The notes below the pieces were generated by a model. It was not told where the DNA came from, did no database searches, and saw only the letters and a list, made by a program, of their open reading frames with translations. A DNA stretch of 64,000 bases from Octopus vulgaris (taxonomy: Eukaryota), in assembly GCA_951406725.2 (NCBI GenBank), contig OX597831.1, positions 14,942,001-15,006,000 of the forward strand, read 5' to 3'. Position numbers and translations under genes: made by a program. Below, piece after piece: positions 2,513-63,464 of the stretch. The first letter of the stretch is position 1; every line of letters begins with the position of its first letter.

Positions 2513-3130
2513 CATTTTAGAACTTTTAGAACAAGAGACCAGGAAACCATGATGGTCCTCTGGAGGAGTGCCCTAAGCCACTTTGACTATTGCTCTCAGC
2601 TATAGTCACCAACCAGTGTCAAATTAATCTCAGAACTTGAGGCAATCCAACGAAGCTACACGAAGAAGATAGCCTCTATGCAGCATATAAACTATTGGGA
2701 AGAACTCAAGAGATTAAGTCTCTATTCCTTAGAGCGTAGGCGAGAAAGATATGCCATAATATATATCTGGAAGATCCTGGAAGGACTTGTCCCAAATTCT
2801 GGCATCAAGAGTTACACAAATACTAGAACTGGGCGCCACTGCATAGTGCCAAGGACTCTAAATTTGCCATCAAGATATAGGACAAGATACTGCAATAGCC
2901 TGGGCTTCAGAGGTCCACAGCTCTTCAATATCCTCCCGAAGGACCTGAGAGACCTGCATGGGGTGGATGTAGGTGTCTTCAAAATAAAGCTGGCCCTCTT
3001 CCTGTCAGGTTTCCCAGATGAATCAACTTCACGGCAGCAGGTGCAGATTAGGGCAACTGCATCAAACTCTCTCATGCACCAAATGTCAATTGCTAAAAAC
3101 ATTCGTGAAGTAAAATCATGTAGCAATTCC
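2513..3130 (+). mobile_element. 5'-truncated CR1/L2-group LINE, ORF2 C-terminus (pseudogenised)
   Basis: Frame of ORF 2678-3223 extends upstream through one stop (TAG 2603-2605): FRTFRTRD..HFDYCSQL*SP..LEAIQRSYTK..YWEELKRLSLYSLERRRERY..RGPQLFNILP, typical of the post-RT region of CR1-like LINEs. Confidence 0.85.
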
Positions 3131-3204
3131 GAATGGCGGTGCCCCATCATGGCCACAGCTTGCGAGCCTAAACTAGATGAAAAGTTTAATTTTTTATTAA
3201 GCCA

Positions 3205-3365
3205 GCATCTGCAGAATCTTTAGTACGCGGGGCAAATGGCTTAACGGTATTTCGTCCGAATTTACGTTGTGAGTTCAAATTCCGAGATCGATAACTTAAA
3301 TACCTTTCAATTACTGGGGTCGATGTAATCGATATTCCCCCTCTCTCAAACATGCTCACCATGTG
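3205..3365 (+). mobile_element. SINE family C, degenerate
   Basis: GGTATTTCGTC..GAGTTCAAATTCCG..TACTGGGGTCGATGTAATCGA, shared with 50975-51603. Confidence 0.65.
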
Positions 3366-8655: not shown

Positions 8656-9068
8656 ATTCATGCATGCCTAACTAAACGCATACCGACGTACATTTATTTA
8701 GACATACAATCAAATACGTATGTACACATTCATTGGAACATCTATGCTAGTCAGCCTTTATACTTATCTCTTGTTTACATACATATACACATGCAAGCAT
8801 TCATTGATTAATGCATACATATCTACATGCATACATACCTACATCCATACAAACACACATGCTTTATTGCATATATGTAGGGAATATTTTTTGTATGACT
8901 AAACGTTTGCTCGCTGCATACTTACGTATTGAGGAGGTGGTTATAAATTTACTTATTGAATTTATTCACTGATACTTTTGTACACAGGGTAAATGCGTTT
9001 GAAAGTTGTGGTTTCTTTCGCATGTTTGTTCCTAGACAACACTTATCTTAGTACTGTTGACACCGCTG

Positions 9069-9130
9069 CATTGAATGGTACTGCCAAGGTGCCGAAACCG
9101 TAATGATACCCGTGGGACAGCTGATGATGG
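9069..9130 (+). ncRNA. Non-circularly permuted hammerhead ribozyme candidate
   Basis: CATTGAATGGTA^CTGCC-AAGGTG-CC-GAAA-CCGTAATG..GGACAG-CTGATGA-T-GG; stems III, I and II pair only in crossed order. Confidence 0.7.
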
Positions 9131-9528
9131 AGGTATGTTGGATTGTACGTATTGCTGTTTTTGCATATGTAGAATAGTGTTAGAATACATCGTTTTGATA
9201 TATCTACATACGACTATGTATATTAGAACCTCGATCAGCACGATGTGAACTTGTAGCTTGAATAGCAATACATTTATTGACGAGCGTCATCTCAAAGTCA
9301 AAAACGACTTTGTAACAATCATGTTAACTAAAGACATTTTCTCAGTTGCCAGATTCAATATATCGATCAACTGTTCATAAGCGAAGAAACATTTCGAGGC
9401 TAGATAGTGAATACTTGAAGAATTATTGACTTTTACTTTGATATCACATGAAGCTCTGAGACTGCTAAACTGAGGATCATATTCCTTAATAAAGACGTAG
9501 AAGAGAAACACACACATGCCCCATATAA

Positions 9529-37046: not shown

Positions 37047-37176
37047 TTTTATATCTGCATATATTGTTAGAGGACGTTACCAACTGTGTAAACAACATGA
37101 AATACGAAAACAAACGAGTTAAACACGCAGACAAAGAGAGAAAATCGAAAACGGGACAAGTAAACACGGAGAAATG

Positions 37177-37241
37177 ACTCTTCATCAGTTGTCGACTGTC
37201 TATCTACTCCTCATTTCGAGCATTAAGCGACAATATGAGAA
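37177..37241 (-). ncRNA. Non-circularly permuted hammerhead ribozyme candidate (best preserved)
   Basis: Minus: TTCTCATA^TTGTCG-CTTAAT-GCTC-GAAA-TGAGGA..CGACAA-CTGATGA-A-GAGT; stem III 7 bp, stem I 6 bp, stem II 4 bp. Confidence 0.8.
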
Positions 37242-37494
37242 TTCAAAAACCGTTGCACCCATGAATTCTAAAATACAATTTAGGATTTATGGAGGGACAA
37301 AGTTGAGAGCAAAAACAGGAGGGTGGAGACATAAAAGGAAACCGAACAAAAACAAACATGGAGGGACGGTAGACCAGAACTAGGCGCGCACACACACAAC
37401 GACACACACACACAGCACCCAAACAGACACACATATCTATATGGTAAATGGTAAATGAAAGATGGATGATGAAATATACCAGTATTTATCATCA

Positions 37495-41943: not shown

Positions 41944-41989
41944 GACACCTGATGAAGGCTGGAGGGTATATCAGCCGAAACGTTGTGTT
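41944..41989 (+). ncRNA. Minimal type I hammerhead (right arm)
   Basis: GACAC-CTGATGA-A-GGCTG-N10-CAGCC-GAAAC-GTT-GTGTT; loopless palindromic AACGTT stem III. Confidence 0.8.
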
Positions 41990-42374: not shown

Positions 42375-44321
42375 TCGTTCAGTTAATCATGAATTGTTGA
42401 TAAATTTGACATTAGTTTTATCGAGAAATGGATCAAAATTTCTTGCTTCACTAAGAATAATTCTACAATTTGTAACATGCAACGTAAGAACTGTTTATGG
42501 TCGTTTCTCAGATATCATGATTTGTTTAACAAGCGGTAAAAATTTATGATTGAGTACACCAGAAAACCTTGTGTAGTGAAGGAATTTTGCATGTGGGGAA
42601 TTTCTGTGAAAACGTTGCTGAAAATACATAAAATCGGCAATGTTTCTCAGTATCTCTATAATGGTTGAATACATTGATTAGAACAGTGTGATAATTCCTT
42701 GCAAGAAATACAAAAGCAAGAGATAAGGGCTTCAGCCATCTGGTTTTGAAAATAATCAATTTTATCGAAAATGTGATTCTTTCTTCAGTGGAAACCGGAA
42801 ACTAAAAACAAAAAGAAGTTTGCTTACTCAGGGAAGCTTCTACAATTTTATAAACAAACATATGATGTACGATTACGTCATTGTTCGTTTACTATTTAAT
42901 TATTTTATGACAGGTTCCAGATATTAGACTGTGGCCGCACTGAAGTTCTGACCACAAAGTTTATTATCGTGTAGATTGGTTTCAGTAAGTATTTGTTCTA
43001 AGAACACCACGAAATCAGAATAATCCTGCGATATTATATCCTCCTATTGATGTTCCAAGTTCAAATCTTGCTGCCGTTTAACTTAAACTTTTAGACATTC
43101 TCATTCTTCAAAGAAAAAGACAAACTCTATGGTTTGCTGGATTTATCAAACCGTGAAAAGGAAAAACGTTTTCCGGCAATTTGTTTCGCATTTTACATTT
43201 GCAGCTCATATCCTGTCGCGTTCAATTCCACCTCCGGGATCGATAAAATGGAATATAATTCCAGATTGGGAAATAGCGCATTAATATAATGTGCACAAAA
43301 CATTTTGCACTGTATTCTCCGGCATTTGTCATTCATCGTCCCTTCTTTCAGGGTTGTCCATAGCTGTAGCGTGGCAAATTGTTAGGGCGTGGACAATTTA
43401 GTTTACAAAAGTTTTCTCGCAGCTAATGTCCTGAAAGCCCTTGGACTAGTGCTTCCAGTGTTGCACTTTCTATCGTAAAATTCCCTGTTTTAATTTCTGG
43501 ACTGGGCAGTAAGTAATATTCTCGTGCAAAACATACGTTCGCGTTGTTTCAATTCTCTCATTAATATTATGGATGTTAAACCTAAGACAGATCTGCATCC
43601 GGACAGGTGTCGTAAATTTAGTCATTCGTGCACACAATGGAAATGTGATTACATTATGGTCCTATGAGTTCTTAGGTTCATAACAGACCCGAGTGCTCAA
43701 TACTAAGTGATATTGTTCTGAATTACTAAACGGACGTCTGTGTCACAGATATAAATATTGCAAAAATGTCTCTTGGTTTATTGTAGTGAATTTCAAAACA
43801 AAAGACACCCAGAAATCACGTATTTCCTCCTTAATTAAAATATGACTGAACGCAAAATCTTGAAGATGTAACGAAACGCCACAATTAGTCTATACATAGA
43901 CATACATACATATATATATATGAAAGGCATCATATAGAACACAACACGCAGCCCGGTCCGGGAATCGAACTCAAAACTTTACGATCATAAGCTCGAGTCA
44001 TACACACACACAGTACACATTTCTCTAAATTTGGTACGACTCTACAACACCGTCTCTCTCCCCCCTCTCCTACATTCTTTTGCTTTTCTTACTTTGCACT
44101 TCATCTTCTCCTCCTCCTTAATTCATTGTTCCTCGTTTTCTCTTGCTTCTCCCTCTCCTTTATTCCTCTGCCCCCCCCTTTCCTCTCTCTTCTCTTCACA
44201 CGTGACTGACTGACCGACTTTTGGGTCTGGCAGCGGTCGTGGCAGCGCCCCAAGGCACATTCCTAACACGCCAGCTGAGTTTAATACGTCTCAGTCGAAA
44301 GACGCGTGATTTGATTATTCT

Positions 44322-45461
<1,140 letters not shown>

Positions 45462-45600
45462 GTCTTTTCGCATTTTTTCTGTATTCATATTCGTGTAACA
45501 TCGTCCGTTTTCCGTCCTTCTTTCGTATACATTCGAAGCTTTTTCCCAAGGAATCTAATGCGCTTCGCTTAGTTTTTTTTCTTGGGCTGGCCAGATTGGA

Positions 45601-45660
45601 GCAATCTCAAGATTAATCAGCCGAAATTGCGAGGATGATCCGGTTCTTGACTGAAGATAG
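45601..45660 (+). ncRNA. Non-circularly permuted hammerhead ribozyme candidate
   Basis: GCAATC^TCAAGA-TTAATCAG-CC-GAAA-TTGC-N14-TCTTGA-CTGAAGA-TAG; perfect stems III (5 bp) and I (6 bp), stem II weak. Confidence 0.75.
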
Positions 45661-45780
45661 AAGACTTCGAATGTCCTGTCCGTGTTTTTTGTATCGTCTT
45701 CTAAATGCTATGCGTTCTTGTCCCAGTTTGTGCTTTATATATATGTGTGTGTGTGTATACACACACACACACACACACAT

Positions 45781-47627: not shown

Positions 47628-47673
47628 CTTCGAAACACGCATGGAGTCGTACTAGGGACAGCTGATGAAGGAG
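47628..47673 (+). ncRNA. 5'-truncated permuted hammerhead (GAAA strand and CUGAUGA strand only)
   Basis: CTTC-GAAAC-N25-CTGATGA-A-GGAG; upstream cleavage strand replaced by (TATC)n. Confidence 0.5.
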
Positions 47674-47952
47674 AATTTTCCTTGTGTTGTTTGTCTTGTA
47701 CTCTGTTTTTTCGTTATTAAAAAAAGGTCTGTTTCCATGTTTGTTTTACGTTTTCGTTTCTCGTTGAGTTCTGCGTCTATTTTTGGTGACCCGTACTCAC
47801 GTATATATATTTATATATGCATGTATATATACATGTAGATGTAGGTACGTACATATATGTATGTATGTGTGCATATATTTTATTTATTACACTATATATA
47901 TATATATATTTCTATATCTATAGAGAGTGAGATAAATATACATACACACACA

Positions 47953-61710: not shown

Positions 61711-61785
61711 ATAATACAAAATGGGACAAGAACGCACAACATCCAGACAGTTTGTTGATACAAAAGGGGACAACAGAACGTCCCC

Positions 61786-61851
61786 ACTTCTTCATCAGTT
61801 ATAGGTCACAGGGTCAAATGCAATTTCATGGCTTTAACGATAATATTGATT
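61786..61851 (-). ncRNA. Degenerate non-circularly permuted hammerhead candidate
   Basis: Minus: AATCAATA^TTAT-CGTTAAAGCCAT-GAAA-TTGCATT..ATAA-CTGATGA-A-GAAGT; stems III and I pair, stem II decayed. Confidence 0.55.
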
Positions 61852-63464
61852 CCCATTGAAAGTTTTGTATTTTTAAAATATAACATCTTTTATATTTGCG
61901 TATATCCGAATCATTCTTTTCATTTGGAAGATTAAACAACGTAGTGCATTGCAAATAAATGGATTAACAAATACCTATATCATCACGCACACACACACAC
62001 ACACACTCATATTATATGTATATATCTTTATACTGGTTTATACTGGTTGAACTCTTCGGCCATAATACACATTCTATCATCGCTTGCTTATTCCTGTTAA
62101 AGTCGATATATATATATATATATCTGAAAATTACAGCCACTATTTTCACCTATCCTATTTCCTCCTTCTCCTCCTCCTCCTCCTCCCCCCTATTCCCTCC
62201 CCCTCCTTCCCCTCCTCCTCTTCGTCTCTCTCTCTCTCTATCTCTGTTTCTCTGTATTTCTTCCTCTCCACCCTCGTCTTTCTAGTTTGATTATTGACTA
62301 TAGAAATATGAAGTGCTTGCTAAAACCAAAAACAAATCTTTAAATCTATTTTTGTACCCAACCTTTGGCATTCGAATCTCTGGTCGTAGATATTCATTTG
62401 GCAGTGTTGTTTCAATTGTGACTCTTCAGCTTTAGGGTGTTTTCCTATCAATCTCAGAATGTCTCAGAAGACTTGCAGAGATTCGTATACTGTCTCTTGA
62501 TTATTTCCTAAGGCCATTGAACACAAATATTACAATACACTGACAAATTACATACATTTCGACAATCAGCTTCTATTAACATATCTCTGAATTTCAAACA
62601 ATGTATTGGCATCTCTTTACAAATTAAGACCTCTTACTCCATTCAGCCATTATCTGCCGATACCAAAACACACTTTTACAAGCAAATATTATGGTATCAC
62701 ATATTACCGGTATAGGATGGATCGAGAAGTTAGGTTTTTCATTTCATCATGAAAAAGTACCGAGTTCGATACCACTGCACAGTATCTTGGCCAAGTGTCT
62801 TCTGCGTACCATTTGGTTTCATACAATTATTGGGAAGGAAAACAGCAGTTGATTTGAAGCTTTTCCAGCGGTTCATGTATAATATTACTTTATGCAGTCT
62901 ACTTTAGCGTAAACATAAAGACCAGGTCCCCCACAAAATGATTCGTAAATTAGCAATTCTATGAAGCTCGCTTTAAGATTTTTACTCAATAGATGAAACG
63001 CAGAGCTCATATCCTTTTAAATGTCTCAATCATTGATAATATTTTCCTACGTCTTGTGAAAGTCTGTCGATATTTGCCACAGAGTAGACACCATTCGGCA
63101 ATAGGGCTTATAGTGATGTTAAAACGAGAAACGGATTAAGGTTACCATCAACCCAAATATGAATGATCTTCTTACCTCTACGAAATTACTCTCAGAATGT
63201 CTCATGGCTGCTCCGAGGAAATGGTAGGAGATACTATACTGTTCACAGAGTGACTTAATCAAATTCAGTCCGAGACTACCAAAAATGCGGGTGGAACATC
63301 TAAACAACATTTCTATATCTACGCCGATTATTTGCCATAGCAAACCAACGGCTACAGAGTGGTTTTCGTTCCTTGACTCCCTTCTTTCTCAAAAGTTTCA
63401 CGACATTCATAGAAGCTGCATTTTTTTGTTGTTGTTGATAAAATACACCACAATATTGGATCCA

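Follow-up and report, generated by a model that had tools for sequence, protein, structure and literature searches.

A putative split-core hammerhead ribozyme near the 3' end of non-autonomous Penelope-like repeats in Octopus vulgaris

In hammerhead ribozymes, G12 and the 2'-OH of G8 catalyse the cut after H17, and the A9-G12 pair stacks on G10.1-C11.1, as set out in the available part of the work on the pseudoknot hammerhead (PMC11300833). The closest described relatives of the locus reported here are the permuted, non-circular types SGC and CSG (Eckert 2023, PMC10085705); type SGC RNAs have been shown to cleave, and type CSG comprised only two sequences, both from metagenomes. In the available portion of that paper, CUGAnGA and its adjacent paired strands are assumed to be contiguous, so that block C is uninterrupted, and no non-circular hammerhead is placed in the genome of a known organism except for one GCS candidate. 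Among Penelope-like elements (PLEs), insertions carry a 30-40-bp tail (PMC8557442, PMC11167929), and for Poseidon the accessible text describes a cleavage that is protein-dependent and dispensable for insertion in vitro (PMC11167929). The Naiads, in turn, were reported without canonical hammerheads and with (TA)n as targets (Craig 2021, PMC8557442); some of them contain core strings that match no hammerhead descriptor, for which the parts of the paper at hand give no fold, while its supplement mentions "HHR_core" 10 times and "HHR_half_core" 8 times.

We analysed a stretch of 64,000 nt, hereafter the window, from the microsatellite-rich, 2.8 Gb genome of O. vulgaris (contig OX597831.1, positions 14,942,001 to 15,006,000). 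A first-pass annotation had recognised a permuted hammerhead-like motif starting at 45601, and this holds: the strands follow one another in the order S, G, C, and a strict descriptor matches at 45651. The fold is nevertheless larger than in that first reading and wired differently, extending over 45529-45674 (+), with the following parts:

45529..45545, + strand: P0 5' strand, pairing with the strand after A9
45547..45584, + strand: hairpin Px, lying between P0 and stem II as the fourth arm of the junction inserted there
45585..45590, + strand: stem II 5' strand GGCUGG, with G10.1 at 45585
45591..45597, + strand: 5' strand of helix b, the stem I/stem II interaction helix (from covariation)
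45601..45612, + strand: block S, with the stem III 5' strand, C17 and the stem I 5' strand; predicted cut 3' of 45606
45617..45630, + strand: block G, with the stem II 3' strand, GAAA (45623-26) and the stem III 3' strand
45637..45643, + strand: helix b 3' strand (from covariation)
45645..45657, + strand: 3' strand of stem I, then the CUGAAGA core (45651-57)
45658..45674, + strand: P0 3' strand, immediately after A9, pairing with 45529..45545
45675..45731, + strand: family A's T-rich 3' tail, continuing into (TA)n (from copy comparison)

Stem III (GCAAU 45601-05 with AUUGC 45626-30, 5/5 pairs) and stem I (UCAAGA 45607-12 with UCUUGA 45645-50, 6/6 pairs) are as perfect as had been claimed, and the AUC site is likewise borne out at 45604-06, with C17 at 45606 and the cut itself being a prediction, so that together with GAAA and CUGAAGA all the core nucleotides are present. 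Stem II is formed by GGCUGG (45585-90) and UCAGCC (45617-22), which make 6 bp free of mismatches, with G10.1-C11.1 adjoining GAAA. The 5' strand of this stem lies upstream, and the strand that follows A9 folds back to form P0 (45529-45 with 45658-74), in most copies next to a Px hairpin, which leaves the chain open between A9 and G10.1; in P0, 15/17 pairs are formed with one C-A and one C-U mismatch and a pair probability of 1.0. Very probably, then, the core is split at the A9/G10.1 step and P0 seals the gap again, with Px completing a four-way junction. Helix b connects the distal ends of stems I and II and thereby provides the stem I-II contact. The full strand order reads P0a - Px - IIa - b - [III, UH, I] - 4 nt - [II', GAAA, III'] - b' - [I', CUGANGA] - P0b, and this wiring amounts to a non-circular C-S-G ring whose blocks are joined to one another at all three links, the break having been shifted into block C instead. 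Site-specific cleavage after C45606 is predicted from this model.

The first-pass annotation had given stem II a C-A mismatch, presumably pairing AGCC 45619-22 with GACU 45663-66. Such a helix requires a 5-nt insertion after A9, competes with P0 at a pair probability of 0.0 versus 1.0, and has one pair broken in 11/39 copies, while the real stem II, part of which lies outside the range then annotated, contains no mismatch. The "stem II-repaired" construct proposed at the time would therefore target the wrong helix, and any construct that begins at 45601 would leave out the true stem II 5' strand, which lies at 45585-90. In this respect the earlier interpretation was wrong, and it was right on the permuted motif and on the non-autonomous Penelope-type repeat that carries it.

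With the type SGC and CSG hammerheads, as far as they are described in the available text of PMC10085705, the window copy shares the S-G-C order, the helix joining the ends of stems I and II, and the pseudoknotted core, and it combines the b-to-S link of CSG with the G-to-C link of SGC. It differs from both in the upstream position of the stem II 5' strand and in the bridging of A9 and G10.1 by P0 (with Px), and its link from stem I to stem II is 4 nt, compared with typically 3 nt in type SGC. Its non-circular block order runs opposite to the cyclic order found in types I, II, and III (CGS, GSC, and SCG). The strict mark of type SGC, a stem II strand within 1-2 nt after CUGANGA, occurs in register in 0/94 core matches, and in the window copy at best 1 contiguous stem II pair can be formed downstream of CUGAAGA. 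The type I PLE hammerheads (PMC4209133), which likewise lie near PLE 3' ends, and the pseudoknot hammerhead (PMC11300833), which likewise combines the A9-G12 pair with G10.1-C11.1, have the same catalytic nucleotides in the parts of these papers at our disposal, but both differ from the octopus element in having a circular block order and a contiguous A9-G10.1. The features by which the hammerhead class is recognised, namely, the core nucleotides, stems I-III with G10.1-C11.1 and A15.1-U16.1, and the stem I-II contact, are all found here, and, as judged from its sequence, the element would work like a hammerhead while standing outside types I-III and strict SGC.

Comparison of 45450-45730 with Rfam returned 4 matches up to E 10 without a hammerhead, and there was none either among the 150 of 379 matches listed for the whole window, in which microsatellites matched miRNA-like models; this blank is weak evidence, given that Rfam also missed the type I-like relics of the same window. 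These relics are ordinary type I-like PLE hammerheads in inverted orientation, at 41949(+) and 41632(-), some 320 nt apart, and they share with family A an 11-nt stretch ending in GAAA (41611, 41970). The window also contains a 205-aa frame at 2606-3220(+), which we take to resemble the C-terminal part of LINE ORF2. Readings of the motif as an HDV-like, twister, or pistol ribozyme, or as a SECIS or box C/D element, were dropped by eye against their consensus features.

In the window, the strict descriptor matched twice, at 45651 and 37188. Shuffling 200 times yielded 3 core matches, 0 of them with stem II (the full descriptor), and reversed loci yielded 0 descriptor matches. Throughout 788,503 locus bases, from overlapping loci chosen for these families, 75 of the 94 core matches had the upstream stem II and 0 had an in-register downstream stem II. 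An alignment of 40 A-lineage copies, assembled by sequence alone (38 of the 71 near-complete matches, plus L043 and L129), showed pairing in 89.6% of cells, in comparison with 28-51% in slid controls. Double-sided changes were found in 17/54 pairs, versus 5.2 +/- 1.8 in shuffles (0/500), a test inflated by kinship among the copies and in which some of the P0/Px double changes come from the truncated row L129. By helix, they affect 4/6 pairs of stem I and 5/7 pairs of helix b, and no double-sided change of stem II was seen within these 40 copies. The two P0 pairs nearest A9, mostly U-U, are unpaired in 32-33 of the 40 rows; an A-C mismatch interrupts helix b in 31/40, and the full motif is retained in only 19/30 A loci. 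In the young subfamilies, a stem III pair has been swapped from C-G to U-A (subfamily G), or stems I, III, and b have changed together, with no clear Px (subfamily A').

Folding with ViennaRNA, which admits no pseudoknots, gave stems I and III a probability of at most 0.03 in the presence of rival local hairpins, and stem II a probability of 0.46 in the window copy and 0.93 in L006; the upstream stem II was not the favoured nested partner in the representatives of B, C, D, E, or F. Among 29 copy 5' ends, no clear accumulation at the predicted cut was seen, 3/29 falling within 6 nt of it and 7/29 from -2 to +17. The stretch is present in 14/21 sequencing runs (only presumed RNA), and in 4 presumed-RNA runs the summed contig depth was higher 3' of the cut, as read from contigs, which hide ends, and against a genome that over-represents 3' parts, so that this depth counts neither for nor against a cut there.

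Four other families with the same order and different stem sequences are present in the window, namely, C (47662), D (37188), E (9121), and H (61798), the last of them in the copy that had been paired with ours at 61786:

47628..47895, + strand: family C copy, 5'-truncated, CUGAUGA at 47662; fuller copies have the same wiring
37068..37383, - strand: family D copy, CUGAUGA at 37188; same wiring
8877..9210, + strand: family E fragment, decayed Naiad 3' end, CUGAUGA at 9121; same wiring
61712..61854, - strand: the 61786 copy, a 5'-truncated chimera with S, G, b' and CUGAUGA (61798) of family H and a subfamily-B tail

Strands pair fully within their own lineage, and across unrelated families stems II and III reach only 1-4/5 pairs, with the stem I strands of C and E cross-pairing at 5-6/6. 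In 10/10 family representatives the upstream stem II has 5-6 bp, whereas the best downstream alternative offers 1-5 pairs at an offset that varies; C, D, and F have a 4-pair downstream alternative at offset 0-1, partly G-U. Between families the core varies mainly at N7, where A, G, U, and C were all seen. Retained across families and phyla are CUGANGA, GAAA, U16.1, and, at H17, a base other than G (C, A, and U were seen). Stem II is variable within family H. Matching block order was also seen in two single copies, one of family F (L196:1195(+)) and one of a further family (L202:4935(+)), the latter downstream of a decayed Naiad-type reverse transcriptase (RT).

The first-pass annotation had noted a tail shared with the 61786 copy, and we do find an identity of 23/26 nt with 61742-61717(-) at E 0.001; the common carrier that had been deduced from it stands only loosely, for the tail (subfamily B type) and not for the ribozyme, which is of family H. 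The ribozyme part, 61854-61773(-), matches family H, with a junction near 61783, and the tail from about 61783 matches subfamily B, the match starting there in 22/29 loci; the window copy is the only one among 20 H loci with a B-type tail. The 61786 copy has neither the stem II 5' strand nor Px nor the P0 5' strand, and its sequence identifies it as a truncated chimera of two related families, possibly produced by template switching. The matches to family H ruled out that the CUGAUGA at 61798 is merely unrelated flank.

The family E fragment matches by eye the 3' ends of the Naiad_Obim and Naiad_Ovul consensus sequences (PMC8557442, available part), and family E in this genome lies downstream of Naiad-type RT remnants on the same strand, with RVT_1 below the cut-off; on sequence comparison, 8877-9210 is assigned to the 3' end of a Naiad. 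At L251, an EN-like piece was seen by eye upstream of the RT, with 0 Pfam matches. We looked by eye, not by computation, at the last 300-420 nt of 53/54 published Naiad consensus sequences and saw the upstream stem II wiring in 9/53, from ctenophore to octopus, namely, Bfor, 3_Chem, Amil, Aacu, Anas, 2_Movir, Plae, Obim, and Ovul. Given that three corals, and likewise the two octopuses, are near-identical, these nine ends represent six independent lineages. In Bfor, stem I has only 2 bp and helix b 16 bp; in Plae, P0 and Px lie beyond the viewed segment; and the Esco end looks degenerate. Six nematode Naiads (1-3_Nbra, Hcon, Hpol, and Asuum) fit an intact type CSG by eye, and 37/53 ends showed no core or no parsable fold within the viewed 300-420 nt. 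Core strings appear in further arrangements in Naiad_Ptep, Smim, and 1/2/4_Dst. In the same viewed ends, Naiads of bivalves and hemichordates (CGi, Sglo, Olur, Tgra, Pmar, Skow, Pfla, and 1/2_Chem) have a different common 3' motif directly after the ORF, of the GACGGGTG..CAG-AG-G-TGCTTAC..CACCTG type and with no CUGANGA visible, which is possibly another structured RNA or ribozyme.

The carrier of the window motif, family A, is a unit of ~695 nt with no ORF, whose copies end in (TA)n/(CA)n. In the window it is represented as follows:

44012..45731, + strand: near full-length family A copy, without the first ~34 nt (the tail), ending in (TA)n/(CA)n
44323..45461, + strand: internal (ATT)n microsatellite, 1.14 kb here and short in other copies

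Unit positions 35-441 correspond to 44012-44375 (70%) and positions 392-682 to 45439-45731 (90%), so the copy begins at unit position 35, which is where the tail stops. The (ATT)n tract shows periodic ACG/GTT interruptions. Genome-wide, a 21-nt core motif has 5,463 exact matches, compared with 0 for its reversed control, and a first look gave 2,079 candidates. Family A occurs as monomers, head-to-tail tandems, and inverted 5' pieces, and 10/53 scored 3' ends run into the start of a next unit. The non-autonomous Penelope-type carrier suspected at first is corroborated by its tandem copies, its inverted 5' pieces, its insertion into (TA)n, and its 34-nt tail; extending the family upstream, as had been suggested, did bring out tandem copies and no RT/GIY-YIG ORF of family A. 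An LTR element ending in ..CA was ruled out because the units stand in head-to-tail tandems with a tail.

Subfamily G is young, with 780 exact motif matches and near-identical, dispersed tandem arrays of 843-857 nt units, up to 6 copies long (loci L212-L223; array at G000:C1:108238206-108242440), and its sequence makes it the best candidate for an active retrozyme-like element. The short copies of subfamily A' (L224-L248) are 99-100% identical, some of them arranged in small arrays that repeat every 116-184 nt. Known non-LTR retrozymes bear hammerheads of type I and are for the most part shorter, whereas the octopus units measure ~695-860 nt and carry the split-core form. The animal non-LTR retrozymes presented in the accessible part of a recent preprint (Li, Clavereau, Pollet 2026, bioRxiv 10.64898/2026.07.22.740005) are likewise non-coding, PLE-related, and hammerhead-bearing, and likewise form monomers and head-to-tail tandems.

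Naiads, as far as PMC8557442 was available, resemble family A in targeting (TA)n, in inserting as tandem and inverted copies, in the 30-40-bp tail, and in the core near the 3' end; family A differs in having no ORF, and hence no GIY-YIG and RT within the element that would make it a Naiad member. Fold and targets are what the two share, and a link of family A to a Naiad master, or its mobilisation by a Naiad protein, may be supposed. No autonomous partner of family A was found by an ORF scan among the listed frames of 100 loci and an RT search, nor in 36 RT regions, a 5'-end search, and tblastn on 167 loci; among these 167 (A, B, C, D, G, and A'), 3 had a PLE protein match, none of which was part of the unit, and E1 gave none. 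An A' copy near a Naiad RT (L129/L211) proved to be a separate insertion rather than a linked partner. All the Naiad RTs found in the genome are decayed. A young Neptune-like PLE family has 753-aa ORFs and no A-type tail; at L146-L158 (e.g., L147:3125-5383, -) it shows an intact 753-aa RT frame with a C-terminal GIY-YIG, an upstream frame of ~370 aa, (TA)n ends, and a degenerate core-like string near the 3' end, and it is a candidate for mobilising the young repeats. At L100:43-978(-), a PLE RT fragment has 55% identity to the Neptune-like protein, with a family D copy on the opposite strand. The unit start carries a splice-donor-like GTAAGT followed by a long pyrimidine tract (L006:991-1030; L147:450-480; D and G units), and a CACGTG motif is common to the 5' part of several families.

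Three other explanations have to be weighed against a split-core ribozyme. If the element were an ordinary type SGC hammerhead, stem II would come from the strand after CUGANGA across a 1-5-nt bulge, and the upstream pairings would be inhibitory or incidental; there is indeed a 4-bp option, offset by 5 in A, A', and G and by 0-1 in C, D, and F, and the downstream stem II pairs in 88.6% of cells of the A alignment. We regard this as improbable, given that the window copy, B, and H provide 1 contiguous pair only, that its probability is 0.0 versus 1.0 for P0, that none of the 94 core matches has it in register, and that its offset differs from one family to the next and the upstream strand stays constant, including, by eye, in the viewed ends of the published Naiads. 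Somewhat less improbable, while still unlikely, is a hammerhead-derived fold that has lost the ability to cut alone and is used by the PLE protein for recognition or priming, or that cuts only with this protein bound. The heavily knotted fold with its competing hairpins, the absence of a clear pile-up of copy ends (3/29 within 6 nt of the cut), the many Naiad ends without a visible core in the viewed segments, and the precedent of the Poseidon hammerhead, protein-assisted and dispensable in vitro in the available text (PMC11167929), all agree with such a role, but the retention of CUGANGA, GAAA, U16.1, and a non-G H17 is expected of catalysis and not of protein binding.

It is, lastly, hardly credible that the pairings arose by chance or duplication around CUGANGA and GAAA remnants of a scrambled type I PLE hammerhead. 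The 11-nt GAAA-ending stretch shared with the type I-like relics of the window (41611, 41970) and the likeness, in some families, of the post-A9 strand to the 5' strand of stem II would fit this origin, which is already largely refuted by the 0 full-descriptor matches in 200 shuffles and in reversed loci, by the compensatory changes between master subfamilies, and by the presence of seven helices in identical order with unrelated sequences in several phyla.

We thus consider the window element to be probably a self-cleaving hammerhead with a split core, carried by a non-autonomous Penelope-like repeat close to its 3' end. Stem II would stack on A9-G12 as in other hammerheads, which the continuous strand from 11.1 to G12 would allow, with P0 and Px stacking alongside and the A9 and G10.1 strands crossing over to them. 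The ribozyme would be complete only once the P0 3' strand had been transcribed, and the RNA would then cut after C45606. Self-cleavage is likely for the family as a whole, and for the decayed window copy its chances seem just better than even. In tandem transcripts, the cut would free a unit-length RNA whose ends are held by ~40 bp, and because the products would remain paired, circularisation and rolling copying into tandems would be favoured; the circularisation step is the most tentative part of this scheme, and we place it a little below even. A PLE reverse transcriptase would then start internally at the tail and copy the unit into (TA)n sites, yielding monomers, tandems, and 5'-truncated copies.

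A core opened between A9 and G10.1 and closed by an extra helix is, to judge from the literature searched, undescribed: neither this wiring nor permuted hammerheads in PLEs appear among the matches listed in the full-text searches, which covered mainly freely available papers and the main text of PMC10085705. Taken together, the data lean modestly towards a seventh natural hammerhead wiring, ancestral to the Naiad clade, present from ctenophores and cnidarians to cephalopods, with an intact type CSG in nematode Naiads instead, and active in thousands of retrozyme-like copies that replicate via circular RNA. If this is true, the list of hammerhead layouts, which was built on the inseparability of CUGANGA and stem II, would have to be extended, and standard descriptors are predicted to overlook a class of ribozymes and retrozyme-like repeats. 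The helix inserted at A9/G10.1 would also be a new design site for ribozyme switches. Non-circular hammerheads, known in the available literature from metatranscriptomes and metagenomes, would be placed in animal genomes at a high copy number, and the puzzle of Naiads reported without canonical hammerheads and yet with orphan core strings would find its answer.
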